A DNA stretch of 64,000 nt from Candidatus Aminicenantes bacterium (GCA_041320535.1 JBGLNH010000001.1:1022253-1086252), one strand, 5' to 3'. Counted from the first letter of the stretch, positions 10,607 to 60,806 are shown. Notes: generated from the letters alone by a model not told the origin. Numbers and translations: made by a program.

Positions 10607-13534
10607 ATGACCCCCACGACCCGAAAGCCCCGCATCGGCCTGGCCCTCGCCCTGGCCGTCGCCTTCGCCCTCGGCCCGGCCCTCGCGCCGGCCCTGGCCC
10701 AGCAGAAGGTCCACGAAGAGTACACCAAGAAGATCAAGGAGTTCACGACCGATACCCACTTCGCCACGAAATACGTCGACTATCTTCCCTACGCCGAGGG
10801 CGTCCCGACGCCGCTCGAGGTCCTCGGACGCATCGCCGGGGCCAAGGACGTCTTGAGCTACTCGTCCGAGGTCTACAAATACATGAGGGCCCTGGCCGCG
10901 GCCACGCCGCGGGTCAAGGTCTTCGACGTCGGCAAGACCGAGGAAGGGCGCGACTGGATCGTCGTCGCCGTCGCCGACGAGCAGACCATCCGCGACCTCG
11001 ACAAGTACAAGGCCATCAGCGCCAAGCTGGCCGACCCCCGCAAGCTGGGCGAGGCCGAGGCGCGGGACCTCCTCAAGCAGGCCAAGCCCTTCTACTGGGC
11101 CACCGGCGGCCTGCACTCCGGGGAGACGGGCTCGGTCGAGATGCTCATGGAGCTCGCCTATCGCGTCGCCGTCGACGAGTCCCCGTTCATCAAGACGATC
11201 CGCGACAACGCCATCGTCCTCATCACCCCGATCCTCGAGGTCGACGGCCGCGACAAGCAGGTCGATGTCCACATGGCCAAGCGCAAGGACCCCAAGGCCG
11301 ACGTCCCCAACCGGCTCGTGTGGTGGGGCAAGTACGTCTCCCACGACAACAACCGCGACAACCTCGGCCTGTCCCTGGCCCTGAGCCGGTACGTCATGAA
11401 GGTCTTCTTCGACTTCCACCCCCTGGTCATGCACGACCTCCACGAATCCATCGCCTACCTCTACATCTCCACCGGGACCGGGCCCTACAACGCCTGGCTC
11501 GACCCCATCACGGTCGACGAGTGGAACCTCCTGGCCTACCGCGAGGTCAACGAGATGACCAGGGCGGGCGTCCCGGGCGTCTGGACCCACGGCTTCTACG
11601 ACGGCTGGGCCCCCAATTACGCCTTCTACGCGGCCAACGGCCACAACGCCATCGGCCGGTTCTACGAGACCCAGACCGCGGGCGACGGCTCGACCCGGGT
11701 CGTCTCCGCGTCGCCCGACCGGGCCTGGTACCGGCCCAACCCGCCGCTCCGCCAGACCCTCTGGTCCCTCCGCAACAACGTCAACCTCCAGCAGAGCGCC
11801 CTCCTCATCGGCATGAACCACGTCGCCTCGCTCAAGGACAGGTTCCTGGAGAGCTTCTATCTCAAGGGCAAGCGCTCCGTGGCCAAGGCCCGGGCCGAGG
11901 GCCCGGCGGCCTACGTCTTCCCCGGCGACGACCCGCGGCCCGGGCAGCAGGCCCGCCTGCTGCGCCAGCTCCAGGCCCAGGGCGTCGAGGTCCACAAGGC
12001 CGACCGGCCCTTCAAGGTCAAGGACGCCGAGTACCCGGCCGGCAGCTACGTCGTCCGCATGGACCAGCCCTATTCGCGCATGGCCGACCTGCTGCTCGAC
12101 CGGCAGTACTTCAACGTCAACGACCCGCGGCCCTACGACGACGTCGGTTGGACCCTTGCCCCGCTCTACAACGTCAGGAGCGCGCGCGTCGAGGACGTCG
12201 CCGTCCTGGACGCGGCGATGACGCTCGTCCAAGGCGAGGTCGCGGCGCCGGGCGGCGTCGTCCGCCTGGCCAAGGGCGCGGCCCAGGCCTATCTCGTCAA
12301 CCACAACGCCGACAACGTCCTGGCCACGTTCCGCTACAGGCGCCGGGACCTCAAGATCCAGGCGGCCGAGAAGGACTTCGAGGCCCAGGGCCGCAAGTTC
12401 CGGGCCGGCTCGTTCGTCATCAGGCCGGGCGACAACCCGGGCGACCTCGAGAAGGCCCTGGACGAGGCCGGAAAGTCGCTCGGCTTCGTCGCCGTCGCCG
12501 CGGCGGCCGTCCCCTCCGTACCCACGCACGAGGTCGGCGCGCCGCGCGTGGCGGTCATGCACACCTGGCAGAACACCCAGAACGAGGGCTGGCTCCGGAT
12601 CGCGCTCGACGAGTGCGGCATCCCCTACGACTACGTCTCGGTCCACGCCGCCCGCGACAACGCCAGGCTGCGCGACAAGTGGGACGTCATCATCTTCGGC
12701 CCCTCGTCGGGCGACGCGCTCTCGATCGTCAACGGCCTCAGCGGGGACAAGCCCCTGCCCTGGAAGAAGACCGAGCTCACACCGAACCTCGGCGCCGAGG
12801 ACTCGACCGACGACATGCGCGGCGGCCTCGAGCTCGACGGCGTCCTGCACCTCCGCGATTTCGTCAGGGACGGGGGCGTCTTCATCACCCTGACCTCGAG
12901 CTCCGTCCTGCCCATCCACTTCGGGCTGGCCCAGGGCCTCTCGATCCGCGACACGCCGAACCTCTGGGCCCGGGGCGGCGTCTACAAGGCCGAGGTCGGG
13001 GACCGGACCAGCCCTCTGGCCTACGGCTACGACGACGCGGTCGGCGTCTACTTCTCCCAGTCGCCCGTCTTCGCCGCGGGCGGCATGGGCGGCCGGGCCA
13101 TGGGCATGATGCCGGGGATGGGCGGAGCCGCCCCGGGGCGCGTTTCGGGCCGCGGCAGCGCGAGCGACCCCGACATCCCGCAGGGGCGGGCCCGGGACCT
13201 CGGCCAGAAGACGATCGAGGAGTTCCGCAAGGCCGAGAAGGACGCCGCCCGGGCCACGGCCGAAGAGGGCCCGCGCCAGGCCATGGCGCCGGCCGCCCGG
13301 GCCAGGATCGTCGTCAGCTTCGCCCGCAAGGCCGACGACCTCCTCATCAGCGGCGGATTGGCCGGGGGCGAGGCGCTGGCCGGGGCCCCGGCCCTGGCCG
13401 ACGCGACGATCGGCAAGGGCCACGTCGTCATGTTCAGCTTCAACCCGACCTGGCGGAGCCAGACGCAAGGCTCTTATTTCTTCCTTTTCAACGCGTTATT
13501 GAACTGGAGGAACCTCGACGCCAAGCCGAAGTAG
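10607..13534 (+). CDS. Secreted M14-family zinc carboxypeptidase with C-terminal GATase-like domain
   Basis: Signal peptide, HSGE (HxxE), HDNNRD, HDLHE; start ATG 10607 with strong SD. Confidence 0.85.
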   Translation: MTPTTRKPRIGLALALAVAFALGPALAPALAQQKVHEEYTKKIKEFTTDTHFATKYVDYLPYAEGVPTPLEVLGRIAGAKDVLSYSSEVYKYMRALAAATPRVKVFDVGKTEEGRDWIVVAVADEQTIRDLDKYKAISAKLADPRKLGEAEARDLLKQAKPFYWATGGLHSGETGSVEMLMELAYRVAVDESPFIKTIRDNAIVLITPILEVDGRDKQVDVHMAKRKDPKADVPNRLVWWGKYVSHDNNRDNLGLSLALSRYVMKVFFDFHPLVMHDLHESIAYLYISTGTGPYNAWLDPITVDEWNLLAYREVNEMTRAGVPGVWTHGFYDGWAPNYAFYAANGHNAIGRFYETQTAGDGSTRVVSASPDRAWYRPNPPLRQTLWSLRNNVNLQQSALLIGMNHVASLKDRFLESFYLKGKRSVAKARAEGPAAYVFPGDDPRPGQQARLLRQLQAQGVEVHKADRPFKVKDAEYPAGSYVVRMDQPYSRMADLLLDRQYFNVNDPRPYDDVGWTLAPLYNVRSARVEDVAVLDAAMTLVQGEVAAPGGVVRLAKGAAQAYLVNHNADNVLATFRYRRRDLKIQAAEKDFEAQGRKFRAGSFVIRPGDNPGDLEKALDEAGKSLGFVAVAAAAVPSVPTHEVGAPRVAVMHTWQNTQNEGWLRIALDECGIPYDYVSVHAARDNARLRDKWDVIIFGPSSGDALSIVNGLSGDKPLPWKKTELTPNLGAEDSTDDMRGGLELDGVLHLRDFVRDGGVFITLTSSSVLPIHFGLAQGLSIRDTPNLWARGGVYKAEVGDRTSPLAYGYDDAVGVYFSQSPVFAAGGMGGRAMGMMPGMGGAAPGRVSGRGSASDPDIPQGRARDLGQKTIEEFRKAEKDAARATAEEGPRQAMAPAARARIVVSFARKADDLLISGGLAGGEALAGAPALADATIGKGHVVMFSFNPTWRSQTQGSYFFLFNALLNWRNLDAKPK

Positions 13535-31014: not shown

Positions 31015-31469
31015 ACCGGCTCCGCGGCACCGGCACCTCGCTCCCGCCCGGCATCAAGACGATGAGCGTCCCGGTGTTCAAGAACCAGACCACGCGCTTC
31101 GAGCTCGACGTCAGGCTGACCCGGGCCGTCGTCAACGAGCTCGTCGCCCGGGGCAAGGTCGCGATCAGCCCCGACCCGGGGGAGGCTGACGCCGTGCTGG
31201 AAGGCGAGATCACCGGCTTCCGGGCCGTGCCCATCGGCTTCACCGGGGCCAACCAGGCCGACAAGTACAACCTCGTCGTGACCGCCAGGGTCACGCTCCG
31301 GGACCGCCGTTCGGCCGCGCCCCTCTTCGAGAACCCGGCCTTCGTCTATCAGCAGGAATACGACGTGCCGCCGGGCGCGAGCTTCGAATCGCTCGAGTCC
31401 GAGGCCATCGAGAAGATCGCGGAGAAGTTCGCCCGCAGCCTCGTCGCCGCCATCCTGGAGGGGTTCTGA
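31015..31469 (+). CDS. lptE: LptE family lipoprotein, signal peptide and lipobox missing (junction)
   Basis: RLRG..SLPPGIKTMSVPVFKN, ADAVLEGEI; upstream of holA as usual. Confidence 0.72.
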
Positions 31470-31470
31470 G

Positions 31471-32640
31471 ATGGCCGGGCCTCCCGCCGGCGGCCTCCGC
31501 GCGGAGACGCTCCTTCCCGGCTACCTCTTCTACGGCGAAGAGGACCGCCTGGCCGAGGAATTCGTCGAGGAGCTCCGGGAGGTCCTGACGGCCGCCTCGG
31601 GCGGGGAGTTCCGGCTGACGCGCGCGGGCCTCGACGAGACGAAATGGCGGGAGGTCATCGACACGGCCCGGACCGCGCCCTTCCTCTTCGAGCCCTGGCG
31701 GGCCATCGTCGTCCGCGTCCCGGAGAAGGGATCGTCTTCAGGCCGGGGGCAGGACCCGAAGCCCGACGGGGAGGAGGGCCGGACCTCGAAATACCTCACC
31801 GCGACCGACCAGAAGGTCCTGCGCGAGTATTTCGCCGATCCGCTTTCGCGCACGGTCCTGGTCGTCATCCGGGCCGGCAAGGTCCGCCGGGACGACGCCC
31901 TGGTGCGCTTCTTCGCCTCGCTGCCCAAGGCGGTCTTCTCGACGACGGAGATGAAGCGGCTCAGCCCGGCCGCCCTGATGCGCCGGGCCGACGACCGGGC
32001 CCGCCGGCTCGGCAAGACCCTGACCGAGGGCGCGAGGCAGCGGCTCTTCGAGCTCGTCGGCCAGGACCTCCGCCTGACCATGAACGAGATCGACAAGCTG
32101 GCTATCTTCGTCGGCGAGAAGATGGGCATCGAGGAGGAGGACGTCAACCAGGCCACGGCCGGCCAGCGCAGCTTCGAAGGCTACGAGCTCGACGACGCCC
32201 TGGCCGCGGCCGATTTCGCCAAGGCCGCCGCCGTCGTCGGCGACCTGCTCGCGGAGGGGGAACAGCCGGAGAAGACCCTCTACCGCCTGGTCGGGTTCTT
32301 CCGGAGCGTCCTGCTCGCCCGGACCTGGCTCGGCGAAAAGAGCCGGACCAAGGACGAGATCTTCCAGGCGCTCTTCCCCTACATCTCCAAGAATTGGGGA
32401 GACCTCTACCGGAGGAAATCCGGGGACTTCTTCGGGGTCGTGGAGGGGCTCTCGACGGGCGAGCTCAACGCCCTCCTGGCCGGGCTGCGCCGGCTGGACA
32501 AGACCCTCAAGACCACGAGCTCGAGGGGCTACGGCGAGAAGGTCCTCTTCGAGGCCTTCCTGGAGGAGTTCTGCCTGGCGAGGACGAAGAAGCTCGCTAT
32601 TTCGCGGCAGCGGGACCGAGGAGGCCGATCTGGCGGCTGA
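31471..32640 (+). CDS. holA: DNA polymerase III delta subunit
   Basis: YLFYGEE, GQDLRLTMNEIDKLAIF; lptE-holA-rpsT synteny. Confidence 0.82.
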   Translation: MAGPPAGGLRAETLLPGYLFYGEEDRLAEEFVEELREVLTAASGGEFRLTRAGLDETKWREVIDTARTAPFLFEPWRAIVVRVPEKGSSSGRGQDPKPDGEEGRTSKYLTATDQKVLREYFADPLSRTVLVVIRAGKVRRDDALVRFFASLPKAVFSTTEMKRLSPAALMRRADDRARRLGKTLTEGARQRLFELVGQDLRLTMNEIDKLAIFVGEKMGIEEEDVNQATAGQRSFEGYELDDALAAADFAKAAAVVGDLLAEGEQPEKTLYRLVGFFRSVLLARTWLGEKSRTKDEIFQALFPYISKNWGDLYRRKSGDFFGVVEGLSTGELNALLAGLRRLDKTLKTTSSRGYGEKVLFEAFLEEFCLARTKKLAISRQRDRGGRSGG

Positions 32641-32875
32641 GCCGGGATTTGTAGCGGCTCCCGGTGTTCTTCTTGATGGTCCTCTTCTTGACCGACTTGT
32701 CGATCTCCCGGTAGAGGCCGGGGAGCATCTGGGCCGCGGTCTCGCGGTCCTTGGCCTTGATGGCCTCGCGGACCTTGCGCATCTTGGTCCGGAGGGCCGA
32801 TTTCGTCCGGGTGTTGACCGCTTTCCGGCGCAGGCTGCGGCGGTGCTGCTTTATCGCTGATTTGTGACGGGCCAT
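32597..32875 (-). CDS. rpsT: 30S ribosomal protein S20
   Basis: MARHKSAIKQHRRSLRRKAVN..KSALRT..IKKNTGSRYKSRL. Confidence 0.93.
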   Translation of the reverse strand: MARHKSAIKQHRRSLRRKAVNTRTKSALRTKMRKVREAIKAKDRETAAQMLPGLYREIDKSVKKRTIKKNTGSRYKSRLSRQIGLLGPAAAK

Positions 32876-32900
32876 ACTTCTCTCCTCTATGAAGGGGCCT

Positions 32901-32929
32901 ATGATAGAATATCGTGACCCTAAAGTCAA
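32901..32929 (-). promoter_or_regulatory. sigma70 promoter of rpsT
   Basis: TTGACT-N17-TATCAT. Confidence 0.65.
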
Positions 32930-32946
32930 ACCTGGTGCGCTCCCGC

Positions 32947-34530
32947 ATGGAACATGAGGCCCGGAAACACAGTCTGATCCGCTCCACGGCCGCGGTGGCC
33001 GCGCCGACGCTGGCCAGCCGCCTCCTCGGCTATGTCCGCGACCTCCTCCAGGCCTACTACCTCGGCACGGGACACGGCGCCGACGCCTTCACCATCGCCT
33101 TCACCATCCCCAACCTCTTCCGCCGCCTGACGGGGGAGGGGGCGATGACGCCGGCCTTCGTCCCGACGTTCACCGAGCTCAAGCGGGACGGGCCCCGGGG
33201 CGCTCTCTGGTCCTTCGGCAACGTCTTTTTCTGGGACCTGGCCCTGGTCATGGCCGCCGTGACCGCCCTGGGGGTCCTGTTCGCGCCGGGCCTGGTCAAG
33301 GTCATCGCCTACGGCTTCGGCGACGTCGCCGGGAAGTGGGGATCGACCATCTTCATGACCCGGATCATGTTCCCGTACCTCTTCTTCATCACCCTGGCCG
33401 CCCTGGCCTCGGGCATCCTGAACTCCTTCGGCCGCTTCTTCGTGCCGGCCTCGACGCCCATCCTGTTCAACGTCGCCGTCATCGCCGCCGTCGCCGGCTG
33501 GGCGGGGGACAGCCGCGAGCCGGCCCTCGTGTTCGCCGCGGGCGTCGTCGCCGGCGGCATCCTCCAGCTGGCCCTCCAGGTCCCCTTCCTCTGGAAGGAG
33601 GGCATGCGCTTCACGTTCGGCCTGTCCTTCCGGGACCCGGTCGTCCGCCGGGTCGGGCGCCTGATGCTCCCGGGCGTCTTCGGGGCCAGCGTCTACCAGG
33701 TCAACTTCGCCCTGAGCCGGATGTTCGCCTCCGGTCTCGAGAAAGGCAGCGCCTCGGCCCTCTATTACGCCTCGCGGATCGAGGAGCTGACGCTCGGGCT
33801 CTTCTCCATCGCCCTGGCCGCGGCCCTCCTCCCGGCCTTCTCCGAACAGGTCGCCGCCCGGGAGATCGGCGGGATGAAGAGGACGCTGGGCTTCTCGCTC
33901 AAGCTGAGCGCGGTCGTCAGCTTCCCGGCGGCGGCGGGGCTCGTGGCCCTCAGCGTCCCGATCATGCGCACGCTCTTCGAGCGCGGGGCCTTCGACCGGG
34001 AGTCGACCGCGCTCTCCGCGTCCTGCCTGGCGCTCTTCGCCGTCGGCCTGCCGTTCGTCTCCGGGGTCAAGGTCGTCGCCCCGGCCTTCTTCTCGCTCAA
34101 GGACACGCGGACGCCCGTCGCGATCGGCGTCGTCGTCATGGCCGTGAACGCCGCTCTCTCCCTGCTCCTGATGGGCCCCCTCCGGGTGGGCGGGCTGGCC
34201 CTGGCCCTGTCGCTGTCGCAGGCCCTCAACTTCGTCCTCCTTCTCGTCTGGCTCGAGCGCAAGGTCGGGCCGACGGAGCGCCGGAGCTGGCTCGCGGCGG
34301 CGGCCAAGGCGGCGGGCGCGGCGGCCGCGATGGGCGCGGTCCTCCGCCTCGCCTGGCCCGCCCTCGGCGTCGACGGGTCCCCTTTCGCCGTCCGGGCGGC
34401 GGCCCTGTTCGGGGCCATCGTCTCCGGGATCGTCATCTATCTCGGCCTGCTCCGGCTCGTCAGCCCGTCCGATTTCGCCGGCGTCGTCGGGCTCCTGAGG
34501 AAGGCCGCGGCCAAGGAGGGCCCCTCATGA
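32947..34530 (+). CDS. murJ: Lipid II flippase
   Basis: [39 protein letters not shown]; many TM helices. Confidence 0.93.
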
Positions 34531-34994
34531 AGATCGTCCTCCAACGGGTCAAGGAGGCGAGCGTCGAGGTCGAGGGCCGGACGGTCGGGCGCGTCGGGCG
34601 GGGCGTCTGCCTGCTCGTCGGCGTCGAGAAGGGCGACGGCGAGGCCGACGCCGATCTCCTGGCCCGCAAGGCCGTCGAGCTGCGCGTCTTCCCCGACGCC
34701 CAGGGCCGGATGAACCTCCCTCTCGGCGCGGTCGGCGGAGAGGTCCTGGCCGTCTCCCAGTTCACGCTGGCCGCCTCGGTCCGCAAGGGCCGCCGGCCGA
34801 GCTTCGACGGGGCGGAGGTGCCCGACAGGGCGGAGGAGCTCTTCCGCTATTTCGTCGGCGCCGTCCGGGCCCTCGGCGTCGCCGTCGAGACGGGGGTCTT
34901 CCAGGCCCTGATGGAGGTCCGCATCGTCAACGACGGGCCGGTGACCTTCATCCTCGATTCGAGGAAGGACGCCCCGGCGCGGGACGAGGGGTGA
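34527..34994 (+). CDS. dtd: D-aminoacyl-tRNA deacylase
   Basis: [30 protein letters not shown]. Confidence 0.95.
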
Positions 34995-35148
34995 GACGGG
35001 CCCGGTTTTCTCACCTTTGGAGGGGAGGGAAGGGGCCCGAAAATCACCCCCCGATTCCCCGGGCCGGGCCATGCCCGGCCCCGAGGGAAAGCTCTAGGAT
35101 CGGCGTGGGCGGACCGCGGAGGCGTAGCCCGTCCGGGAGTCGAGCTTT

Positions 35149-37122
35149 ATGCCCATGAGCCGTTTCGTCGTCCGGAAGGAGGTCTCGAGCCTGCCCCGCC
35201 TTCCCCTGCGCGGCACGCTCGATCTGACCTACCGCTGCGGCAACGACTGCCGCCACTGCTGGCTGAGGCTCGCTCCGGACGCCCCGGAGGCCGCCGCGGA
35301 GCTCACGCTCGACGAGATCCGCGGGATCGTCGACGGGGCCCGGGCCCTGGGCTGCCGCGAGTGGGCCCTCTCGGGCGGCGAGCCCCTGCTCCGGCCCGAT
35401 TTCCCGGAGATCTTCGAGGCGGTCACCGGGCGGTCGGCCTGGTACACCCTGAACACGAACGGCGGGCTGATCACGCCGCGGACCGCGGCCATGCTGCGGC
35501 GGAAGGGCGCCAAGCTCGTCGCCCTGTACGGCGCCACGGCCGCGGTCCACGACGCCGTCACCCGGAACCCCGGCTCCTTCGAGGCCCTCGTCCGGGGCGT
35601 CGCCTACCTCCGGGAGGCCGGGGCGGGCTTCACCGTCCAGGTCGTGCCCATGAGGACGAACATCGGCGAGTTCGAGGCCATGGTCCGGCTGGCCGAGTCT
35701 TGGAGCCCGAGCTGGAGGATCGGCGCGACGTGGCTGTATCTCTCCGCCTCCGGCGACCCCGTCAAGAACCGGGAGATCGCGGCCGAGCGGCTCGATCCGG
35801 CCCAGGTCGTGTCGCTCGACCGGGTCGCGGGCGGGGGCCCTGTCGAGCTCGGCGGGGACGGAGAGCCGTCTTGCGCCTCGGCCGCGCCGGGCGGCCTCTA
35901 CGCGGCCTGCCTGGCCGGACGGCGCGACTTTCACGTCGATCCCTACGGCGGGCTGAGCTTCTGCTCGTTCGTCAAGGACCCCGCGCTGCGCGTCGACCTG
36001 CGCCGGACCGGGCTCGCCGAGGCCTGGGAGGACCGGTTGCCGCGCCTCGCCGCGGCCGTCGCGCCGTCCGCGGGCTACGCCGGCGGCTGCGGCGCCTGCG
36101 AGCTCCGCTCCGACTGCAAGTGGTGCCCGGTCTACGCCTATCTCGAAACGCGCGACCACTCGTCGAGGATCGAGAGCCTCTGCGCCGTCGCCCGCGAGAC
36201 GCGCCGCGTCCGGGAGGACTGGCTCCTCTCCCACCGCCGGCGCTTCCGCCTCGCCGGGATCGCGGTCGACGTCGAGGCCGACCTGCCCATCGGAGAGGGC
36301 ACGTTCGCCCCCAAGTTCGGGCCCTTCCGGGCCCCCGTCGACGGCCCGGCCGCGATCGTCCTCCACCATCACTTCGCGCTCCCGGACCGGCTCGACGCCC
36401 GCTCCCTGGGCCGCGAGGTCCATCGCCGGCCTCCGTGGGCGGTCTACCGCAAGGGGGATTCCTGGATCTACGTGATGATCCCGCCCGACCCGGCGGACGG
36501 CACGGTCCACCGCGTCATGGTCTTCGACGACGGGCACACCCGCGGGCACATCTACAGCCCGTCGGAGGAGCTCTTCCGGCGGGGCGGGCACGACTCGCTG
36601 GCCCTGCTGCCGTCGGACCAGCTCATTTTGGCCCGGGCCCTCCCGGCCTTCGGCGGCGTCTTCGTCCACGCCTCGGCGGTGGACATGGACGGGCACGGGC
36701 TCCTCTTCGCGGGGGCCTCGGAGGCGGGCAAGTCGACGATCGTCAAGCTGATCGGGGAGCGGGCCAAGGTCCTCTGCGACGACCGCGTCGTCGTCCGCAG
36801 GCACGACGGCGGCTTCCGCGTCCACGGCACATGGAACCACGGAGAGGTCACCCGCGTCTCGCCGGGCTCGGCCCCGCTCAGGGCGGTGTTCTTCCTGAGG
36901 CAGGCGGCCGCCAACCGCGCCGACCGGGTCAGCGGGCCCCGGGCCATCCTGCGGGACTTCCTGCCCCGGATCGTCCGGCCGCTCGTCTCGGCCGATTGGT
37001 GGGAGCGGGCCCTCGGCCTGGCCGAGGAGATCGTCCGCGAGGTCCCGTTCTACGATCTGTCCTTCGACAAGAGCGGCGCCGTCGCCGGCGTCCTCGGGGA
37101 TCTCCTGGAGGCGCGGGAATGA
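35149..37122 (+). CDS. Radical SAM/SPASM enzyme fused to a C-terminal HprK-like P-loop kinase domain
   Basis: CGNDCRHC, GGEPLLR, SPASM CGACELRSDCKWCP; C-terminal HASAV, GASEAGKST (Walker A), CDDR. Confidence 0.85.
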   Translation: MPMSRFVVRKEVSSLPRLPLRGTLDLTYRCGNDCRHCWLRLAPDAPEAAAELTLDEIRGIVDGARALGCREWALSGGEPLLRPDFPEIFEAVTGRSAWYTLNTNGGLITPRTAAMLRRKGAKLVALYGATAAVHDAVTRNPGSFEALVRGVAYLREAGAGFTVQVVPMRTNIGEFEAMVRLAESWSPSWRIGATWLYLSASGDPVKNREIAAERLDPAQVVSLDRVAGGGPVELGGDGEPSCASAAPGGLYAACLAGRRDFHVDPYGGLSFCSFVKDPALRVDLRRTGLAEAWEDRLPRLAAAVAPSAGYAGGCGACELRSDCKWCPVYAYLETRDHSSRIESLCAVARETRRVREDWLLSHRRRFRLAGIAVDVEADLPIGEGTFAPKFGPFRAPVDGPAAIVLHHHFALPDRLDARSLGREVHRRPPWAVYRKGDSWIYVMIPPDPADGTVHRVMVFDDGHTRGHIYSPSEELFRRGGHDSLALLPSDQLILARALPAFGGVFVHASAVDMDGHGLLFAGASEAGKSTIVKLIGERAKVLCDDRVVVRRHDGGFRVHGTWNHGEVTRVSPGSAPLRAVFFLRQAAANRADRVSGPRAILRDFLPRIVRPLVSADWWERALGLAEEIVREVPFYDLSFDKSGAVAGVLGDLLEARE

Positions 37123-38300
37123 CCGCCGCGAGTAGGTCCTACGTGAGGAAGGTCCCCTCGGGCCGGGACGGCCTGTGGGCGTCCGGCGGCCCGCCGCTCA
37201 CGCGGCTCGACATCGAGCTCACCGAGCGCTGCGACAACGATTGCCTCCACTGCTCGGTCAACCTTCCGGCCGGAGACGCCGGGGCCCGGGCCCGGGAATG
37301 GACCGCCGGCCGGTGGAAGGCGCTCCTCGACGAGGCGGCGGCGCTCGGGGCGCTCGTCGTCCGGCTGACCGGCGGCGAGCCGCTCCTGCGCGACGATTTC
37401 GGGGAGATCTACCTCCACGCGAGGGGGCTCGGCCTGAGGGTGATGCTCTTCACCAACGCGACGCTCGTGACGCCGCCGCTGGCCCGGCTCCTCCGGGACG
37501 TGCCCCCGCTCGAAGCGGTCGAGGTCTCAGTCTACGGGCTGACCGAGGGGACGTACGAGGCCGTGACCCGGAGGCCCGGATCGTTCGCCGCGTTCCGGCG
37601 GGGGTTCGAGCTCCTCCGCGGCCATGGCGTCCCCCTCGTGGTCAAGGGGGCCGTGCTCCCTCCGACCCGTCACGAGATGGACGCCTTCGAAGCCTGGGCG
37701 GCCGGGCTCGGCGGGAGCTCCGCCCGGCCCTCCTTCGCCCAGCTCTTCGACCTGCGGTCGCGGCGGGACGGGGACAAGAACGCCCTCATCGCCGCGCTGA
37801 GGATCGGCGGAGACGAGTTCGTCGCCCTCGCCCGGCGTCACGGGGAGGCGGCCGTCGAGGAGTGGCGGGAGTACTGCGCCCGCGCTTGCGCCCCCCGCGG
37901 CGACCGGCTGTTCACCTGCCTGCCGGCGGGCGGTTCGGCCGCGATCGACCCGTACGGCCGTCTTCAGTACTGCCTGGGACTGCGCCATCCGGCGACGGTC
38001 CTCGATCTCGACGCCGCCTCGCTCCGGACGGCCGTCGCGGATTTCCTGCCGCGCGTCCGGGCCATGCGGGCCGCGGACCCGGCCTATCTCGAGCGCTGCG
38101 GCCGGTGTTTTCTCAAGGGGCTCTGCGAACAGTGCCCGGCGAAATCCTGGGCCGAGCACGGCACGCTGGACACGCCGGTCGAATATCTCTGCGGCCTCGC
38201 CCACGCCCAGGCGGCGGCCGCGGGAATGCTCCGTCCGGGGGAGAAGGCCTGGACCGTCGCCGACGGTGAGGAACGGGCGGGAAGAAAAGGAGCGCCATGA
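37119..38300 (+). CDS. Radical SAM/SPASM maturase 2
   Basis: CDNDCLHC, GGEPLLR, FTNATL, CGRCFLKGLCEQCP; ATGA overlaps with both neighbours. Confidence 0.88.
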   Translation: MTAASRSYVRKVPSGRDGLWASGGPPLTRLDIELTERCDNDCLHCSVNLPAGDAGARAREWTAGRWKALLDEAAALGALVVRLTGGEPLLRDDFGEIYLHARGLGLRVMLFTNATLVTPPLARLLRDVPPLEAVEVSVYGLTEGTYEAVTRRPGSFAAFRRGFELLRGHGVPLVVKGAVLPPTRHEMDAFEAWAAGLGGSSARPSFAQLFDLRSRRDGDKNALIAALRIGGDEFVALARRHGEAAVEEWREYCARACAPRGDRLFTCLPAGGSAAIDPYGRLQYCLGLRHPATVLDLDAASLRTAVADFLPRVRAMRAADPAYLERCGRCFLKGLCEQCPAKSWAEHGTLDTPVEYLCGLAHAQAAAAGMLRPGEKAWTVADGEERAGRKGAP

Positions 38301-38602
38301 CCGCGAAGATCGATCTCGGCAAGGTTTACGGCCCGTCCGACGACGTCGTCGTCCGGGAGATCGAGGGGGAGATCGTCATCGTCCCCCTGGCCTCGGGCAT
38401 CGGCGACCTGGAGGACGAGCTCTTCACGCTGAACGAGACGGGCCGGGACATCTGGGCCAAGGTCGACGGGACGCGGCCGCTTGGGGCAGTCATCCGCGAT
38501 CTCGTCGCCGATTACGAGGCCCCCGAAGGGCTGGTCGAGGAGGACGTCGAGGGTTTCCTCCAGGAGCTCCTCGACCGCGGGATGATCGTCGAGAGGGGCT
38601 GA
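38297..38602 (+). CDS. PqqD-family RiPP recognition element
   Basis: VVVREIEGEIVIVP, FTLNETGRDIW, DG, FLQELLDRGMI. Confidence 0.88.
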   Translation: MTAKIDLGKVYGPSDDVVVREIEGEIVIVPLASGIGDLEDELFTLNETGRDIWAKVDGTRPLGAVIRDLVADYEAPEGLVEEDVEGFLQELLDRGMIVERG

Positions 38603-38607
38603 CCGCG

Positions 38608-38886
38608 ATGGCCGATTCTCCCCGCCGCCCCGCCGCCGCCGGCGATCTCCCCCTTCCGGGAGAGGCCCTGGCCGGGCTGATGGCGGCGGTCCTCGGGAAG
38701 GGCCTGCCTTTCCGTTTCGAGGCCCGCGGGGAGAGCATGCACCCGGCCATACGGCACGGGGACGTCGTCACGGTCGCCCCGGTCGCCGGCCGCGCGCCCA
38801 GGGCGGGCGACGTCGTCGCCTTCATCCATCCCGGGACTGGCGGGGTCCGCGTCCATAGGATCTTGGCCCTCGAGCGGGGTTCCTAG
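38608..38886 (+). CDS. S24/S26-family peptidase (Ser-His), 3'-truncated at a junction
   Basis: RGESMHPAIRHGD, GDVVAF, VHRI; the expected GDN motif is missing. Confidence 0.75.
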   Translation: MADSPRRPAAAGDLPLPGEALAGLMAAVLGKGLPFRFEARGESMHPAIRHGDVVTVAPVAGRAPRAGDVVAFIHPGTGGVRVHRILALERGS

Positions 38887-39530: not shown

Positions 39531-39665
39531 GGTCTCCTCCCCTAGCCTGGATTATTCACGAGCTGAGGCGGCTGCATATGCGAGGCGTCAAAGGCGAAGC
39601 TGTACTCGGAGTACTGCGAGCCCTTTGCAACGAAGCAGATGCGGCCGGATCGGCTTGCCCGAAGG

Positions 39666-39732
39666 GTGAAAACGCCGGTTTTATTTTTTGGGTGCTGAAG
39701 GAGAAATGCGGCGTTTTCATGAACAGTCCAGG
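39666..39732. repeat. Dispersed inverted-repeat element family B, copy 1 (immediately after rho stop)
   Basis: Minus strand CCTGGAC...GAAAACGCCGC-N30-CGGCGTTTTCAC; same arms at 60730-60794. Confidence 0.7.
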
Positions 39733-45075: not shown

Positions 45076-45160
45076 TAGGCAGAGCGGGACTCGAACCCGC
45101 ACTCCTTCATCAGGAACTAGGTCCTAAGCCTAGCGCGTCTGCCAATTCCGCCATCTGCCC
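45076..45160 (-). tRNA. tRNA-Leu (anticodon TAG)
   Basis: GGGCAGA/TCTGCCT acceptor stem, D-loop TGGC, anticodon stem CTAGG-CT-TAG-GA-CCTAG, long variable arm, GGTTCGAGTCC; CCA not encoded. Confidence 0.95.
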
Positions 45161-54486: not shown

Positions 54487-54561
54487 GCCCAGCGCGACGA
54501 GCGCGACCGCGGCGGCGAGACCGGCGAGCCTCGCGGGCGCCGACGCTTTCTGTCCGCTCAT
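54487..54561 (-). CDS. Signal-peptide start of an unidentified gene, cut at a junction
   Basis: MSGQKASAPARLAGLAAAVALVAL begins 4 nt after the recJ stop. Confidence 0.45.
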
Positions 54562-54565
54562 TCTC

Positions 54566-56257
54566 TCAGGTCTTCAGGTCCTCGACGGTCAGGCTGGTCC
54601 TCGTTTCCCCGAGGTATTCGGAGCGGGCGATGGAGAAGGCCAGGCTGACCCGGCCGCCCCGCCGCATGACGTGGCGCCAATCGCCCTTGTCCCAGCCGAG
54701 CGCCTCGAGGACGCGGCCGCCCTGCCGGGCCAGGAACTTGAGGTGCTTCCCCTGCAGGACCCGCGGCTCGTTGACGACCTCGACGTCGTCGGCGGCGAAG
54801 AGCGGCTTGGGGTTCCCGACGCCGAAGGGCAGGAGCGCCTCGAGGCCCTCGAGGAACCGGTCGTCGATCGCGGAGAAGTCGAGGGGCGCGTCGATCCGGA
54901 TCTTGCGCTTCAGGCTGTCCTCGGAGATGCGCGCCTCGGCCAGCGGGTTCAGGGCCTCCTTGAGCGCGGCCACGCGTTCCGTCGGCAGGGTGCAGCCGAC
55001 GGCCAGCTTGTGGCCGCCGTAGCTCGAGAACAGGTGCCGGCAATCCTCGAGCAGGTCGATGAGGGGGACGTCGGAGATGCTCCTCCCCGAGCCGTGGGCC
55101 TTGCCGTCCTCGTAGGCGAACAGGACGACGGGCCGGTGGAAGCGGTCCTTGAGCTTGGAGGCGACGATGCCGATGACGCCGCGGTGCCAGCCGGGCGAGC
55201 CCAGGACGAGGCACTTGTACTTGCGGTCGAGCTGCCGGCCCTCGACCCGCTCACAGGCCTCGTTGAAGATGCGCTCCTCGGTCTTCTGCCGCTGGGCGTT
55301 GAGCTCGTCGAGCTTCTGGACGAGGGCCTGCGCCTCGGCGGCGTCCTCGGAGAAGAAGAGCCGGACGGCGAGGTCGGTCATGCCCATGCGGCCGGCGGCG
55401 TTGATCCGCGGCCCGAGGCGGAAGCCGAGGTCGCCCTCGGAGATCTTGCGGTGGCCGAGACCGCAGGCCTCGATCAGGCTCCGCAGCCCCGTGTTGGAGA
55501 CGTTGCGCAGGCCTTTCAGGCCGTGCTTGACGAACAGGCGGTTCTCGCCTTTGAGCTCGGCGACGTCGGCCACGGTCCCGATCGAGACGAGCTTCATGTA
55601 GTGCGGCAGGCCCGCGTCCCGTCCGGCCTTCTGGAGCAGGGCCTGGACGAGCTTGAAGGTCACCCCGACCCCGGCCAGCCCCCGGTCCGGGTAGCCCGCG
55701 TCGTCGAGGACCGGGTCGAGGACGGCCACGGCGTCGGGCAGGACGTCCCCGGGCCTGTGGTGGTCGGTGACGATGACATCGACGCCGAGCTCCCGGGCCC
55801 GGGCGGTGAATTCGACGGCCTTGACGCCGCAGTCGACGCTGATGACGAGGGTCGCGCCCCGCTCGACGGGGATGCGGACGTGCTCGTCCTTGATGCCGTA
55901 GCCGTCGGTCAGGCGCTCCGGGATGAAATACTCGGCCTTGGCGCCGAGGGTCGTCAGGGCCTTGATCAGCATGACCGTCGAGAGGACGCCGTCGACGTCG
56001 TAGTCGCCGAAGACGAGGATCTTCTCTCCGCTGTCGATCGCGGCCCGGATACGGTCGACGGCCCGGGCCATGCCCTTCATCAGGTAAGGGTCGTGGAGGC
56101 CTTCGAGTCCGCCGTAGAGGAAGGCCCGGGCGTCCTCCGCCGTCAGGATCTTGCGGTTGACGAGGACCCTGGCGATGGCCGGAGGGAGGGACAGGGCCTC
56201 GGCGAGCTCGTCGGCCTCGGGACGCGGCGGGCTGATGACCCACTGGGCGGACTTCAT
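54566..56257 (-). CDS. recJ: ssDNA-specific exonuclease RecJ
   Basis: GDYDVDG, DGYG, VDCG, TDHH, GTVADV, PRINAAGR, GSGRS, GGH, PFGVGNPKP. Confidence 0.96.
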   Translation of the reverse strand: MKSAQWVISPPRPEADELAEALSLPPAIARVLVNRKILTAEDARAFLYGGLEGLHDPYLMKGMARAVDRIRAAIDSGEKILVFGDYDVDGVLSTVMLIKALTTLGAKAEYFIPERLTDGYGIKDEHVRIPVERGATLVISVDCGVKAVEFTARARELGVDVIVTDHHRPGDVLPDAVAVLDPVLDDAGYPDRGLAGVGVTFKLVQALLQKAGRDAGLPHYMKLVSIGTVADVAELKGENRLFVKHGLKGLRNVSNTGLRSLIEACGLGHRKISEGDLGFRLGPRINAAGRMGMTDLAVRLFFSEDAAEAQALVQKLDELNAQRQKTEERIFNEACERVEGRQLDRKYKCLVLGSPGWHRGVIGIVASKLKDRFHRPVVLFAYEDGKAHGSGRSISDVPLIDLLEDCRHLFSSYGGHKLAVGCTLPTERVAALKEALNPLAEARISEDSLKRKIRIDAPLDFSAIDDRFLEGLEALLPFGVGNPKPLFAADDVEVVNEPRVLQGKHLKFLARQGGRVLEALGWDKGDWRHVMRRGGRVSLAFSIARSEYLGETRTSLTVEDLKT

Positions 56258-56304
56258 CGTGGCCTCACTCTAGCATATCGGGGGGCCGGGCTCAACCGCC
56301 GCCA

Positions 56305-56333
56305 TTGACAATTAAACGCTTGAAAAATAAAAT
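56305..56333 (+). promoter_or_regulatory. Near-consensus sigma70 promoter of the ftsY-rib operon
   Basis: TTGACA-N17-TAAAAT, 9 nt upstream of GTG 56343. Confidence 0.75.
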
Positions 56334-56342
56334 GTTAAGACT

Positions 56343-57245
56343 GTGTTCGTCCAGCTCCGCGAAAAACTGGCCCGGACCCGCGGCGCTTTCCGCGCCGTCG
56401 AGGACATCTTCCGCAGCGGCCGGCGGCGCGACGAGATCCTCGACCGGCTCGAGGAGGCCCTCATCCTGGCCGACGTCGGCGTCACGGCCTCGGGACTGGT
56501 CCTCGAGGCCCTGCGCTCCGGCACGCGCAAGGACGCCGGCGAGCCCGAGCTCCGCCGGGCCCTCCGGGCCGAGCTCGAGCGCCTCCTCGCGAAGTCCGAC
56601 GGAGCCCGGCCGCCGGGCCCTTTCGCCGGCGCCTCGCCGGCGGTCGTCCTGATGGTCGGGGCCAACGGCGGCGGCAAGACGACCTCGGCGGCCAAGCTCG
56701 CCGCCCGTCTCAAGGGCCAGGGCCGGAAGGTCGTGCTGGCCGCGGCCGACACGTTCCGCGCGGCGGCCCAGGAACAGCTGGCGCTCTGGGGGAAGAAGCT
56801 CGGCGTGGCGGTCTTCAAGGGCGCCTACGGGGCCGACCCCGCCTCCGTCGTCTTCGACGCCGCGCGGTCGTTCAAGGCCCAGAAGGCGGACGTGCTCGTC
56901 GTCGACACCGCCGGGCGCGTCCACACCGACGCCAATCTCATGAACGAGCTCGAGAAGGTCCGCCGCGTCGCCGTCCGCGAGCTGCCCGAAGCGCGCCTCG
57001 AATCGCTGCTCGTCCTCGACGCCACGGTCGGCCAGAACGCCGTCGTCCAGGCCCGGGAGTTCCTCAAGTTCTCCGGCCTCACGGGGATCGTCCTGACCAA
57101 GATCGACGGGACGGCCAAGGGCGGGGCCGCCCTGGCCGTCGCCGCCGAGCTCGACCTGCCCATCCGTTTCCTCGGCGTCGGCGAGTCGGAGGAGGACCTG
57201 GTGGAGTTCTCGCCCCCCGAATTCGTGGAGGCCCTGCTCGCATGA
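56343..57245 (+). CDS. ftsY: SRP receptor FtsY (NG-only)
   Basis: ADVG, GKTT, DTFRAAA, DTAGR, TKIDGTAKGG, GVGE. Confidence 0.94.
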   Translation: MFVQLREKLARTRGAFRAVEDIFRSGRRRDEILDRLEEALILADVGVTASGLVLEALRSGTRKDAGEPELRRALRAELERLLAKSDGARPPGPFAGASPAVVLMVGANGGGKTTSAAKLAARLKGQGRKVVLAAADTFRAAAQEQLALWGKKLGVAVFKGAYGADPASVVFDAARSFKAQKADVLVVDTAGRVHTDANLMNELEKVRRVAVRELPEARLESLLVLDATVGQNAVVQAREFLKFSGLTGIVLTKIDGTAKGGAALAVAAELDLPIRFLGVGESEEDLVEFSPPEFVEALLA

Positions 57246-58342
57246 GCGGCCGGAGCGACCGCGCCTGGATGGAGATGGCCTACGGCCTCGCGGAGAGGGC
57301 CCGCGGCCGCACCAGCCCCAATCCCCTCGTCGGCGCGGTCGTCGTGCGCGACGGCGCCGTCGTCGGGTCCGGCTTCCACGCGGAGCCCGGCAAGGCCCAC
57401 GCCGAGATCCTGGCGCTCGCCGCGGCCGGCCGGAAAGCGCGCGGCGCGACGCTCTACCTGACCCTCGAGCCCTGCGTCCACTGGGGCCGGACCCCGCCTT
57501 GCGCCGACAACGTCCTGGCCGCCGGCCTGGCGCGGGTCGTCGTCTCGGCCCTCGACCCCAACCCGCTCGTCTCCGGCCGCGGCGTCCGCCGGCTCCGCCG
57601 GTCCGGGCTCGCCGTCGCCGTCGGGCCGCTGGCCGGGCGGAACGCGGTCCTGAACGAGTCCTACCTCAAGTACATCACCAGCAAGCGCCCCTTCGTCACG
57701 ATCAAAGCCGCCCTGAGCCTCGACGGCAAGATCGCCTGCCGGACCGGGGACTCGCGGTGGATCTCCTCGGCCGGGACGCGGGACTACGTCCACCTCCTCC
57801 GCGGCGAGCAGGACGCGCTGATGGTCGGCGCCGGGACCCTCATCGCCGACGATCCCCGGCTGACCGTCCGCCATCCGGCCTGGGGCCCGAAAAAGGCGCT
57901 CCGGGCGGTCCTCGACTCCCGCCTGCGCTTTCCGCTCGGCGCGCGGATCCTGAGCACGCTCGCGAGGGGCCCGGTCGTCGTCTTCGCCGGCCGCGCGGCC
58001 CCCCCCGCGAAGGCCCGCGCGCTCGGCCGGCGCGGCGTCGAGGTCCTCTTCCCGCCCGGCGGACGGGAGGATTGGCCCCTCGACCTCGTCCTCTCGGAGC
58101 TCGGCCGGCGCGAGGTGGCCGCGCTGCTCGTCGAGGGCGGCGGCCGCCTGTACACGTCCTTCGTCGAGTCCGGGCTGGCCGACAAAGCGGTCCTGACCGT
58201 CGCTCCGCGGCTCGTCGGCGGCGCTTCGGCCCCGGGCCTCCTCGGCGGAGCGGGCGCGGCGAGGATGGCGGCGGCCCTGGCCCTCCGGCGGGTGCGCGCC
58301 TTCACGGTCGAGGACGACATCATCCTGGAAGGATATTTCTGA
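57242..58342 (+). CDS. ribD: Riboflavin biosynthesis deaminase/reductase
   Basis: [33 protein letters not shown]. Confidence 0.95.
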
Positions 58343-58938
58343 TGTTCACGGGCATCATCTCGCACCGCGGGACGTTCCGCGGCTACAGGAACGGCCGCCG
58401 GGCCCTGCTCGTCGAGGCGGCCGGGCTGGCCTCGAAGCTCGCCGTCGGCGGGAGCCTGGCCGTCGACGGCGTCTGCCTGAGCGTCGTCGCCGCGGACCGC
58501 GGCGAGGTCCTCTTCGACCTCTCGCGCGAGACCGCCGAACGGACGACGCTCGGCGGCCTCGAGCCGGGGGCCCCGCTCAACCTGGAGCTGCCGCTGACCC
58601 CGTCCTCGCCGATCGGCGGGCACATGGTCAGCGGCCACGTCGACGGCGTGGGGCGGGTCCTCAAGGCCTCCTCCCGCCCGCCCGGCAAGCGCCTCACCGT
58701 CTCCTTCCCGGCCGCGCTCAGGCCGTTCCTCATCCCCAAGGGCTCGGTCGCGGTCGCCGGGGTCTCCCTGACCCTCGCCTCGCTCGGCCCGTCCTCGTTC
58801 GACGTCGAGCTCATCCCCCTGACGCTCGAGGGCACGAACCTCGGACGCCTCAGGACCGGGGCCAAGGTCAACCTCGAGTGTGACATGGTCGGGAAATACG
58901 TGTATAATTACCTGTCCCAAGGACGCACCAAGGGCTGA
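58342..58938 (+). CDS. ribE: Riboflavin synthase
   Basis: [43 protein letters not shown]. Confidence 0.93.
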
Positions 58939-58969
58939 GAGAGGCCCCGAGAAAGGCCCGCGCGATCCC

Positions 58970-60187
58970 ATGACCGAAGAGAAGACGACCGTTCCCGTCG
59001 AGACCGCCCTCGAGGCCGTCCGCGCCGGGCGGATGATCATCATCGTCGACGACGAGGACCGCGAGAACGAGGGCGATCTCATGGTGGCCGCCGAGAAGAC
59101 CACGCCAGAGATCGTCAACTTCATGGCCCGCCACGGCCGCGGCCTGATCTGCCTGCCCCTGACCCGGGAGCGGCTGGAGGAGCTCCAGCTGCCCCTGATG
59201 GTCAGCGAGAACACGGCCCGCTTCCAGACGGCCTTCACCGTCTCCATCGACGCCCGCGAAGGCGTCACCACCGGCATCTCGGCCCAGGACCGGGCCCGGA
59301 CGGTGCTCGCGGCCGTCGATCCGGCGACGAAGCCGGAAGACCTGGCCCGGCCGGGCCACGTCTTCCCGCTCCAGGCCAAGGAGGGCGGCGTCCTGGCCCG
59401 CGCCGGCCAGACCGAGGCCGCCGTGGACCTGGCCCGCATGGCCGGGCTCCGGCCGGCCGGCGTCATCTGCGAGGTCATGAACGAGGACGGGACGATGGCC
59501 CGCCGGCCCCAGCTCGAGGAGGCCGGGCGCCGGTTCGGCATCCCCATCCTGACCATCGCCGACCTCATCCGCTACCGCATGAAGACGGAGACCCTCGTCC
59601 GCGAGCTCGACGAGACCGATCTGCCGACCTCGCGGGGGCGGTTCCGCCTCCACGTCTACGAGGACATCATCCGCGGCGAGCACCACGTCGCCCTGGTCAA
59701 GGGCGAGGTCGGCGACGGCGCGCCGACGCTCGTCCGGGCCCACTCGCAGTGCCTGACGGGCGACACCTTCGGCTCGGCCCGCTGCGACTGCGGCGACCAG
59801 CTGCGGCTGTCCATGGAGATGATCGAGAAGGAGGGCCGGGGCGTCATCCTCTACATCCTCAACCACGAGGGGCGCGGCATCGGCCTGGCCAACAAGATCA
59901 AGGCCTACGCCATCCAGGACGACGGGGCCGACACCGTCGAGGCCAACCGCCGCCTGGGCTTCAAGCCCGACCAGCGCGACTACGGCATCGGCGCGCAGAT
60001 CCTCGTGGCCCTCGGCGTCCGCCGCCTCCGGCTCATCACCAACAATCCCCGCAAGTTCGTCGGGCTGACGGGCTACGGCCTGGAGATCGTCGAGCGCGTC
60101 CCGCTCGAGGTCGCGCCCAACGCCTGCAACCTGCGGTATCTCAAGACCAAGAAAGAGAAGATGGGCCACATCCTGGACCTGGTCTGA
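58970..60187 (+). CDS. ribBA: Bifunctional DHBP synthase / GTP cyclohydrolase II
   Basis: [46 protein letters not shown]. Confidence 0.95.
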
Positions 60188-60189
60188 GG

Positions 60190-60705
60190 ATGGACGTTCC
60201 GCGCGCCCCCGAAGGATCGAGCCCCTCCCCCATCTGCGCCGCCTTCCTCCTCAAGCTCGGCCGGACGCAGGACAAGACGAAGCGGCAGCGCATCCTGGCG
60301 GCCTGCGTCAAGGTCCGCCGCCCGTGGGCCGAGGAGCTCCTGTGGGAGGCGCTGGCCGATCCCAACGAGGCCGTCCGGTCCTTCGTCGCCCGGGAGCTGC
60401 GCGACCGCCCGGCCATCCGCCTCGACCTGGCCCTGAGGAGGCTCCGCCTCCCGCCGTGGTGGGCCAGGAGCTCGGTCCTGAAGATCGTCGGCCGCCGCCG
60501 CGTCAGGGAAGCCCTCTCCGAGGTCGCCCGGGCGGCCGGCGACGTCAACGTCGACGTCCGCCGCTCCGCGGCCGAAGCGCTGGGCGAGATCGGCGGGGAA
60601 GAGGCGGTCCGGGCCCTCGTCCGCCTGAAGAAGGACGCCAACCCTTACGTGCGGGCGGCGGCCGAAGAGGCGATCGAAAAGACGAGCCGGGTCCGTTTCA
60701 GCTGA
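60190..60705 (+). CDS. Small HEAT-repeat protein
   Basis: DPNEAVR, DVNVDVRRSAAEALG, DANPYVRAAA. Confidence 0.75.
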   Translation: MDVPRAPEGSSPSPICAAFLLKLGRTQDKTKRQRILAACVKVRRPWAEELLWEALADPNEAVRSFVARELRDRPAIRLDLALRRLRLPPWWARSSVLKIVGRRRVREALSEVARAAGDVNVDVRRSAAEALGEIGGEEAVRALVRLKKDANPYVRAAAEEAIEKTSRVRFS

Positions 60706-60729
60706 GGCCCCGGGGCCGGCGCGCCTCAG

Positions 60730-60794
60730 CCTGGACCTGGCACGAAAACGCCGCTCTTGGTCTTCCTGTTGACGGAGAACTACGGCGTTTTCAC
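60730..60794. repeat. Family B inverted-repeat element, copy 2 (possible bidirectional terminator)
   Basis: CCTGGAC...GAAAACGCCGC-N28-CGGCGTTTTCAC between the convergent HEAT and precursor genes. Confidence 0.7.
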
Positions 60795-60806
60795 GAATGG
60801 CTCAGG

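Follow-up and report, generated by a model that had tools for sequence, protein, structure and literature searches.

Among peptides that are made by ribosomes and modified after translation (RiPPs), those matured by radical S-adenosylmethionine (radical SAM) enzymes are a leading source of novel peptide chemistry. Few RiPPs are phosphorylated and, to our knowledge, this modification has been established only for lasso peptides. The SynChlorMet system of Haft is defined by two radical SAM enzymes, one PqqD and one ScmC, and Methanocella and Syntrophobacter are founding taxa of it. Here we describe a locus with PqqE-like radical SAM/SPASM enzymes, a PqqD-family protein and a ScmC component, as in SynChlorMet, in a 64,000-nt stretch of DNA from a Candidatus Aminicenantes bacterium (GCA_041320535.1 JBGLNH010000001.1:1022253-1086252; hereafter the window, with positions counted from its first letter). 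A preliminary description, made from the sequence alone, had read positions 35149–38886 as a four-gene maturase cassette. We consider it probable that this segment is part of a six-gene RiPP cluster guided by a RiPP precursor recognition element (RRE), in which the Cys residues of a small precursor would be crosslinked, a kinase-like domain would phosphorylate the peptide, and a peptidase would remove its leader.

Two further groups of described systems share parts of this gene set. In sactipeptide and ranthipeptide systems the maturase usually has its own N-terminal RRE and one enzyme makes all of the links; thioethers are the commonest links made by SPASM enzymes on Cys. Phosphorylated lasso clusters (paeninodin with PadeK, the proteobacterial lasso kinases, and pseudomycoidin with PsmK) combine an HprK homologue with a PqqD-type RRE, as does our locus. 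The HPr-kinase homologues of these clusters act on linear precursors and place the phosphate on the C-terminal Ser, which is the only common feature of substrates that otherwise share little (PMC8498205).

Gene content and assembly of the cassette

We show here which genes the locus contains, how well they and their active sites are conserved, what folds the enzymes have, and which precursor family goes with them. The segment holds four genes, all in the same direction on the plus strand. Gene A (35149–37122, 657 aa) joins a radical SAM/SPASM peptide maturase domain (residues 1–360, 35149–36228) to a ScmC/HprK-like P-loop domain (residues 361–657, 36229–37122) that is a predicted peptide kinase. 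Gene B (37119–38300, 393 aa) encodes a second radical SAM/SPASM maturase and overlaps gene A by an ATGA; gene C (38297–38602, 101 aa) encodes a stand-alone PqqD-family RRE, the predicted leader-peptide binder, and overlaps gene B in the same way. After a 5-nt gap follows a fragment of gene D (38608–38885; the stop of the open reading frame (ORF), at 38884–38886, is only an apparent one), which comprises codons 1–92 of a 165-codon S24/S26 peptidase gene of the Ser/His, S26B-like type. The tight coupling noted in the preliminary description was reproduced by our ORF calls, and Pfam, invariant Cys residues and Foldseek agreed that gene A contains a full radical SAM/SPASM domain and an HprK-like P-loop domain.

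The two remaining genes lie elsewhere in the window, on the minus strand. Gene E (61050–62177, 375 aa) encodes a third radical SAM/SPASM maturase and is 88% identical to the third radical SAM protein of a related locus, L001. The precursor gene (60807–60989) encodes a 60-aa peptide, MKKQWQTPELIVLFKGRPEETLLCHCKHKTAPPVAPYNHKDNCTSNPACCQACSDTRYAS, that is 97% identical to an ORF of L001. The four genes first described are therefore real, but the full cassette has six, including three radical SAM genes and its own precursor; the statement that no precursor is visible holds for 35149–38886 and does not hold for the window. The 155-nt gap upstream of gene A contained only GC-rich chance ORFs, and a precursor at that site was rejected.

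All three radical SAM proteins matched Pfam Radical_SAM above the gathering threshold (gene A, E = 2.8e-19; gene B, E = 5.8e-20; gene E, E = 4e-20), and they are paralogues of 30–40% mutual identity. Among 31 homologues of gene A, the CX3CX2C motif (C30/C34/C37) and seven SPASM cysteines (C254, C272, C314, C317, C323, C326 and C345) were invariant, and the same CX3CX2C and SPASM motifs were seen in the translations of genes B and E. The Pfam SPASM hidden Markov model (HMM) itself gave only a weak match, in gene E (19.3 versus 21.5 bits). NCBIfam matches of the radical SAM parts were PqqE-, MftC-, AhbD- and ScmE/F-like, all under the curated cut-offs. An AlphaFold2 (AF2) model of the gene A fusion (pLDDT 83, pTM 0.75) was compared with known structures by Foldseek, and its N-terminal half matched SkfB, PqqE, SuiB, CteB and anSME. 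On their motifs, and for gene A also on its fold, the products of genes A, B and E are predicted to be radical SAM/SPASM peptide maturases.

In all three the radical SAM domain begins near residue 20–30, which leaves no space for an RRE at the N-terminus. Gene C matched Pfam PqqD well above gathering (57 versus 23.4 bits, E = 2.5e-15), and its NCBIfam PqqD and lasso_PqqD_Bac matches were under cut-offs. Because the three radical SAM proteins lack an RRE of their own and a single stand-alone PqqD is encoded, this protein is likely a shared leader binder, and it is reasonable to suppose that the three enzymes have a common substrate presented by one RRE.

The gene D fragment matched Pfam Peptidase_S24 (27.9 bits versus 23.3 gathering, E = 2e-6), as did the full gene in the sibling contig L079 (34.5 bits; 165 aa, 11592–12089). 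Its best NCBIfam matches, archaeal signal peptidase I and sod_Ni_protease, were under cut-offs. The family has G-x-S-M-x-P, V-H-R and G-D-N boxes, of which the S(M), H(R) and GDN residues were at least 90% conserved in 52 full-length homologues. Because these boxes are kept, gene D appears to encode a Ser/His enzyme of the S26B (archaeal/Sec11/SipW) type. It resembles the S26B signal peptidases (archaeal and ER Sec11, SipW) and the Ni-SOD protease SodX in these boxes, and differs from them in scoring below the family cut-offs, in its short length (about 165 aa) and in being encoded within a RiPP cluster. The window copy keeps the Ser and the His and has lost the GDN half through an assembly break, so that the peptidase as first read was a truncated fragment. 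Separately, in roughly one of four related loci (about 12/52; for example L050, 5723–6700, Acetyltransf_1 E = 1.2e-16) the relative of gene D carries a GNAT acetyltransferase domain at its C-terminus, which suggests that in those lineages the new N-terminus is N-acetylated once the leader has been removed.

The separation of genes A–D from gene E and the precursor was first read as a 23-kb inversion. If the inversion were real, it would have disrupted the peptidase gene and left this strain with an inactive cassette. It would account for the arrangement of the related contigs L001, L002, L009 and L017, which are collinear with window 31015–38855 in the forward direction and then with 62225 back down to 56083, and the window contains no Ns. 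However, the complete public contig L080 (7861 bp) corresponds to window 31025–38885 and terminates exactly at 38885, at codon 92 of the peptidase gene, so position 38886 is not the end of the cassette or of the peptidase. Three junctions also cut genes. At ~31015–31025 lptE is interrupted; at 38885/38886 the peptidase fragment abuts an Asp/Glu racemase without its 15 C-terminal residues; and at 62227/62228, 50 nt upstream of gene E, an RlmI-like methyltransferase (at 62230) lacks its 184 N-terminal residues. We searched the window for the other halves of lptE, the peptidase, the racemase and RlmI, and none was present. Lastly, in the sibling contigs L079, L082 and L083 (99.3–99.9% identity) and the more distant L084 (94–96%) the cassette is unbroken or the sequence runs on past the break, with genes D and E contiguous in L079, L082 and L084. 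In L079, which shows the true arrangement of the locus, the order is gene A (fusion), gene B (second radical SAM), gene C (PqqD), gene D (165-aa peptidase), gene E (375-aa third radical SAM) and the 60-aa precursor, flanked by dtd on one side and by a HEAT-repeat gene and rib genes on the other.

Because L080 ends at 38885, the siblings are contiguous and the junction genes lack their other halves, we concluded that the split cassette is an assembly artefact and rejected the inversion, which we regard as exceedingly improbable. The junctions at 31.0, 38.9 and 62.2 kb are places where separately assembled contigs were stitched together, and gene truncations or 'missing' partners near them should not be taken as biology. 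A database look-up by exact protein returned no record for the truncated peptidase or for gene E.

Precursor family and the ScmC/HprK-like domain

To collect the precursor family, every small ORF in the loci that were retrieved was searched iteratively with a profile. It comprised 73 ORFs (68 distinct), all beside the cassette and from many phyla, positioned upstream of gene A, between genes B and C, or after gene E, with two to four in some loci. The leader follows the pattern K-K-x-W-x-x-P-x-L-I/V-V-L-x-R-G-x-P-E-E-x-V-L-x-x-C-K. Across 22 diverse members P8, E20, L23, C26, K27, C43 and C53 were invariant, and W5, L10, R15, C50 and S60 nearly so. From Cys-Lys onward the core is 27–48 residues long and, apart from three more Cys, hypervariable. 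Between phyla only the Cys, Lys and Ser are retained, whereas within Aminicenantes the core is highly conserved and Cys/His-rich. The C-terminal residue was Ser in 56 of the 68 distinct sequences and Thr in 4 of them. In several non-Aminicenantes loci, namely L063 (11414–12906), L026, L050, L069 and L065, between two and four divergent precursor genes stood in tandem.

No Pfam or NCBIfam model covered the family, and there was no match to SCIFF; the sole model match was a weak one of the leader to the paeninodin lasso leader (PadeA, E = 0.039). The 69 database relatives, where named, were called 'hypothetical protein' and had no Pfam domain. In the window the precursor has GGAGGA 9 nt 5' of its ATG. 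A promoter-like site, TTGACT-17-TAACAT (61025–61053, minus strand), lies in the 60 nt that separate gene E from the precursor gene; it is a consensus match only (1 found versus 0.1 expected in shuffles). Directly 3' of the precursor stop are two terminator-like stem-loops (60701–60810, minus strand; −53.2 kcal/mol, z = −3.35).

A repeat of ~190–250 bp was seen near some of these genes (window 39537–39723; L079 13466–13700; L021 3565–3765). Three sibling contigs (L079, L082 and L088) have it as an insertion immediately 3' of the precursor gene, flanked by a duplication of the last ~20 nt of the precursor together with its terminator hairpin. The insertion is absent from the window locus and from L083/L084, and the window's copy (84%) lies between the racemase and rho. 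One possibility is that the repeat is a small mobile element, with the hairpin as its target or its cargo.

We then consider the C-terminal domain of gene A. Its best NCBIfam match was ScmC (57.8 bits; residues 501–589, E = 3.7e-15), followed by HprK_rel_B (28.8), hpr-ser / HPr(Ser) kinase (24.1) and HprK_rel_A (14.5). Pfam PF27840 (ScmC) is listed as a precomputed database match on the window protein and on all 120 top homologues. Modelled alone (297 residues), the domain gave a confident AF2 structure (pLDDT 90.6, pTM 0.87), and Foldseek matched it solely to ATP-dependent PEPCK (best E = 3.5e-8) and HprK/P (best E = 5.6e-7), with E values ranging to 2.6e-5 and probability 1.0. Identity to both was about 10–16%. 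A sequence search of the PDB returned only Lactobacillus casei HprK/P (1jb1), weakly (E = 0.22), and the alignment covered exactly the active-site stretch, VHASAVDMDGHGLLFAGASEAGKST..VLCDDRV, spanning H..G.G.L..G.S..GKS..DDRV. The VHASAV..GASEAGKST..DD motif of the preliminary description was accordingly found in gene A and aligned with the L. casei active site.

Among 65 fusion homologues of 33–100% identity, at least 95% conservation was found at H507, G515, G517, G522, S524 and A526–T530, and at L542–R546 (including D544, D545 and R546), R550 and G560–G565. This is the pattern of an active phosphotransfer site and not of a relic, and suggests a catalytic domain. The domain is like HprK/P and ATP-dependent PEPCK in its fold and in its His, Walker A and Asp-Asp motifs. 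It is unlike HprK/P in that the N-terminal domain and hexamer context are absent, and in its gene context, which is peptide maturation and not carbon catabolite control. Because 56 of the 68 precursors end in Ser, the site used by the lasso HPr-kinase homologues (PMC8498205), the idea that the domain phosphorylates the precursor is strengthened.

Several observations weigh against a peptide Ser kinase. The domain misses every NCBIfam cut-off for HprK-related kinases A and B (200 bits each), HPr(Ser) kinase (240) and ScmC (125). In the structure search PEPCK, which is not a protein kinase, outscores HprK/P, and the likeness to HprK/P is weak outside the active-site stretch. A beta-rich subdomain of ~140 residues precedes the P-loop. 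The correlation between Ser and kinase is also imperfect: in Methanoregula (L063) none of the four precursors ends in Ser despite a fused ScmC domain, and in Syntrophus (L073) the cassette lacks the ScmC domain while its precursor is nonetheless Ser-terminal. The domain might instead phosphorylate another residue as a leaving group, drive a nucleotide-dependent hand-over among the three radical enzymes, act on a small molecule as PEPCK does, or serve mainly as a peptide-binding scaffold. Against these options stand the full HprK/P constellation (His, Walker A Lys-Ser/Thr, Asp-Asp-Arg), conserved at the level given above across phyla, the recurrence of ScmC-like proteins beside PqqD genes in other peptide contexts, and the terminal Ser/Thr kept in 60 of the 68 precursors. 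Because of the conserved constellation we favour catalysis over scaffolding, and we consider a function other than Ser phosphorylation somewhat unlikely, although it is the most serious of the alternatives.

A full HMMER scan with the domain against 1.84 billion representatives yielded 6718 proteins with E ≤ 1e-3, of which 1753 passed 1e-10 and 140 passed 1e-30. In the top 150, fusions of ~650 aa were fewer than ~300-aa proteins whose start coincides with the domain boundary. One stand-alone ScmC, P0121, belongs to a split version of the same cassette with radical SAM genes, a 63-aa ORF, PqqD and an S24 peptidase. Fused and split forms thus alternate, and the fusion is neither obligatory nor a unique architecture. 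Where it occurs, fusion is good evidence that the ScmC domain is functionally coupled with the first radical enzyme. A second stand-alone ScmC-like protein, P0127 (locus L089, 4668–7596), lies beside an NTP_transf_5 nucleotidyltransferase and PqqD, with no radical SAM gene on the 8-kb contig; this setting is reminiscent of phospho-glycosylated lasso clusters and may be another peptide-tailoring context for the ScmC domain.

Comparison with SynChlorMet and other peptide-maturation systems

Like the present system, SynChlorMet has been defined only in silico and its product is not known. Its components have NCBIfam equivalogs, namely TIGR04248 (ScmD, cut-off 100 bits), TIGR04249 (ScmC, 125), TIGR04250 (ScmE, 400) and TIGR04251 (ScmF, 400). 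The cassette could simply be a SynChlorMet member with ScmC fused to ScmF. Both the best NCBIfam match and the Pfam label of the C-terminal domain are ScmC; among the Scm models ScmF is the best match of the first radical SAM protein and ScmE of the other two; ScmD matches the PqqD protein; and the fusion cassette is present in one Methanocella genome (L065). However, the scores were far under the cut-offs: 57.8 bits for ScmC, 85.4 for ScmF (gene A), 71.2 and 76.3 for ScmE (genes B and E) and 23 for ScmD. The copy in Methanocella sp. MCL-LM (L065) likewise fell short, with 45.1 bits for ScmC, at most 97 for ScmE/ScmF and 38 for ScmD. Here, moreover, three radical SAM enzymes and a peptidase are present, against the two radical SAM enzymes of the SynChlorMet definition. 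The locus differs further in that ScmC is fused to a radical SAM protein, that the peptidase is of the Ser/His type, and that a precursor family is defined. We therefore rejected SynChlorMet membership, which we judge very unlikely, and by NCBIfam cut-offs the locus belongs to neither the SynChlorMet nor the HPr-rel families named in the preliminary description. The cassette is treated as a sister system of SynChlorMet and not as a member.

The likeness to lasso clusters extends to the precursor, whose leader has the aromatic-x-x-P-x-L pattern of lasso leaders, and to the PqqD protein, which matches lasso_PqqD_Bac. Our locus differs from those clusters in a kinase-like domain that stands closer to ScmC than to HprK_rel_A/B, and in a Cys-rich core that three radical SAM enzymes would process. 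Neither an Asn-synthetase-like lasso cyclase nor a transglutaminase-like B2 protease was found among the L079 genes and flanks or in the recurring gene set, and on this ground a lasso identity was rejected.

Sactipeptide, ranthipeptide and other RiPP maturases (AlbA, SkfB, CteB and PapB; SuiB, PqqE and MftC) resemble our enzymes in the radical SAM domain, the 7-Cys SPASM domain and the fold, and the sactipeptide and ranthipeptide systems also have Cys-rich precursors and depend on an RRE, as ours is predicted to do. The differences are that here three paralogues without an RRE accompany one discrete RRE, that a P-loop domain is fused to one of them, and that the precursor matches no model of these families. 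Full-text searches of the literature library turned up nothing on SynChlorMet or ScmC, and no description of a radical SAM peptide cluster with an HprK-like domain, an absence that is not proof.

Distribution, proposed pathway and meaning

Homologues of the fusion formed 120 clusters at ≥58% identity, nearly all of ~650 aa, and a scan of species-representative genomes for the fusion yielded 78 loci. With few exceptions, gene B adjoins gene A in the related loci. Where the flank is long enough, the peptidase almost always measures 158–200 aa and not 92, and after it come a third radical SAM/SPASM gene and a small Cys-rich ORF. The order A-B-C-D-E, with one or more precursors, is repeated in the roughly 50 loci that extend far enough to display it; their hosts are Aminicenantes, Omnitrophota, WOR-1/3, Chloroflexota, Actinomycetota, delta-proteobacteria and Planctomycetia and, among archaea, Methanocella, Methanoregula and Methanospirillum. 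An MsbA-like ABC (ATP-binding cassette) exporter follows gene E in L065, L073 and many other non-Aminicenantes loci.

As to the surroundings, the Aminicenantes cassette always lies between dtd/murJ and a HEAT-repeat gene with ribBA, ribE and ribD on the opposite strand (window 54546–60700, minus strand; L079 13809–17272). An Rfam scan of the whole window gave a sole match at gathering score, a tRNA (45076–45160, minus strand, 57.5 bits).

From the gene set and its conservation we infer the chemical steps, the phospho-acceptor and the order of events as follows. The 60-aa precursor would be bound through its conserved leader by the stand-alone PqqD/RRE, by analogy with lasso and other RRE systems. 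The three paralogous radical SAM/SPASM enzymes would each modify the core, most likely by forming crosslinks from the four conserved Cys, such as thioethers of the sactipeptide or ranthipeptide kind. The HprK/PEPCK-fold domain may then use ATP to phosphorylate the peptide, likeliest at the C-terminal Ser, as the lasso HPr-kinase homologues do. The soluble Ser/His signal-peptidase-like enzyme would cut off the leader and, in most non-Aminicenantes relatives, the adjacent MsbA-like exporter would secrete the product.

Other points count against this pathway. Thioethers are proposed solely from the conserved Cys and the SPASM class of the enzymes, and with three separate enzymes for four Cys the chemistry could be of another kind. 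No exporter adjoins the Aminicenantes cassettes. Literature searches turned up no paper on the cassette family and no characterised member of it.

The lack of an adjacent exporter also bears on what the Aminicenantes product might be. A peptide-derived cofactor or a metal-binding peptide that stays inside the cell and is passed on vertically, comparable to pyrroloquinoline quinone (PQQ) or mycofactocin, and not a secreted natural product, would fit a cassette that occupies the same site, with dtd upstream and the HEAT-repeat and rib genes downstream of it, in Aminicenantes metagenome-assembled genomes whose fusions are 62–83% identical, as well as the conserved Cys/His-rich core within that class and the presence of MftC and PqqE among the best matches of the first radical SAM protein. 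In other phyla, however, the loci have an ABC exporter and several divergent precursors each, which is typical of secreted peptides; the core varies strongly between phyla outside the Cys, Lys and Ser; and no partner oxidoreductase is linked to the cassette. We consider a cofactor of this kind improbable, and prefer the RRE-guided, crosslinked and phosphorylated peptide set out above.

The analysis defines a complete gene set: three radical SAM/SPASM proteins, a single RRE, kinase-like domain and predicted leader peptidase, and a precursor family. Members of this family, in bacteria and methanogens alike, can be recognized by the WxxPxL leader, the Cys-Lys, a further three Cys and a Ser at the C-terminus. 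For ScmC and SynChlorMet-like systems, which have long been orphans, the family offers a candidate type of substrate. We tentatively suggest, as a possibility short of an even chance, that the cassette represents a new RiPP class of many anaerobic bacterial phyla and methanogens, in which three radical SAM enzymes would install three links that differ in chemistry or position on a four-Cys core and a fused HprK-fold domain would phosphorylate the C-terminal Ser. If this is true, the product would be the first phosphorylated radical SAM peptide, and the precursor type missing for the related SynChlorMet systems would have been identified. The Aminicenantes product, whose cluster is inherited vertically at a fixed housekeeping locus with no exporter, could then be a physiological metal- or redox-active peptide and not a weapon.

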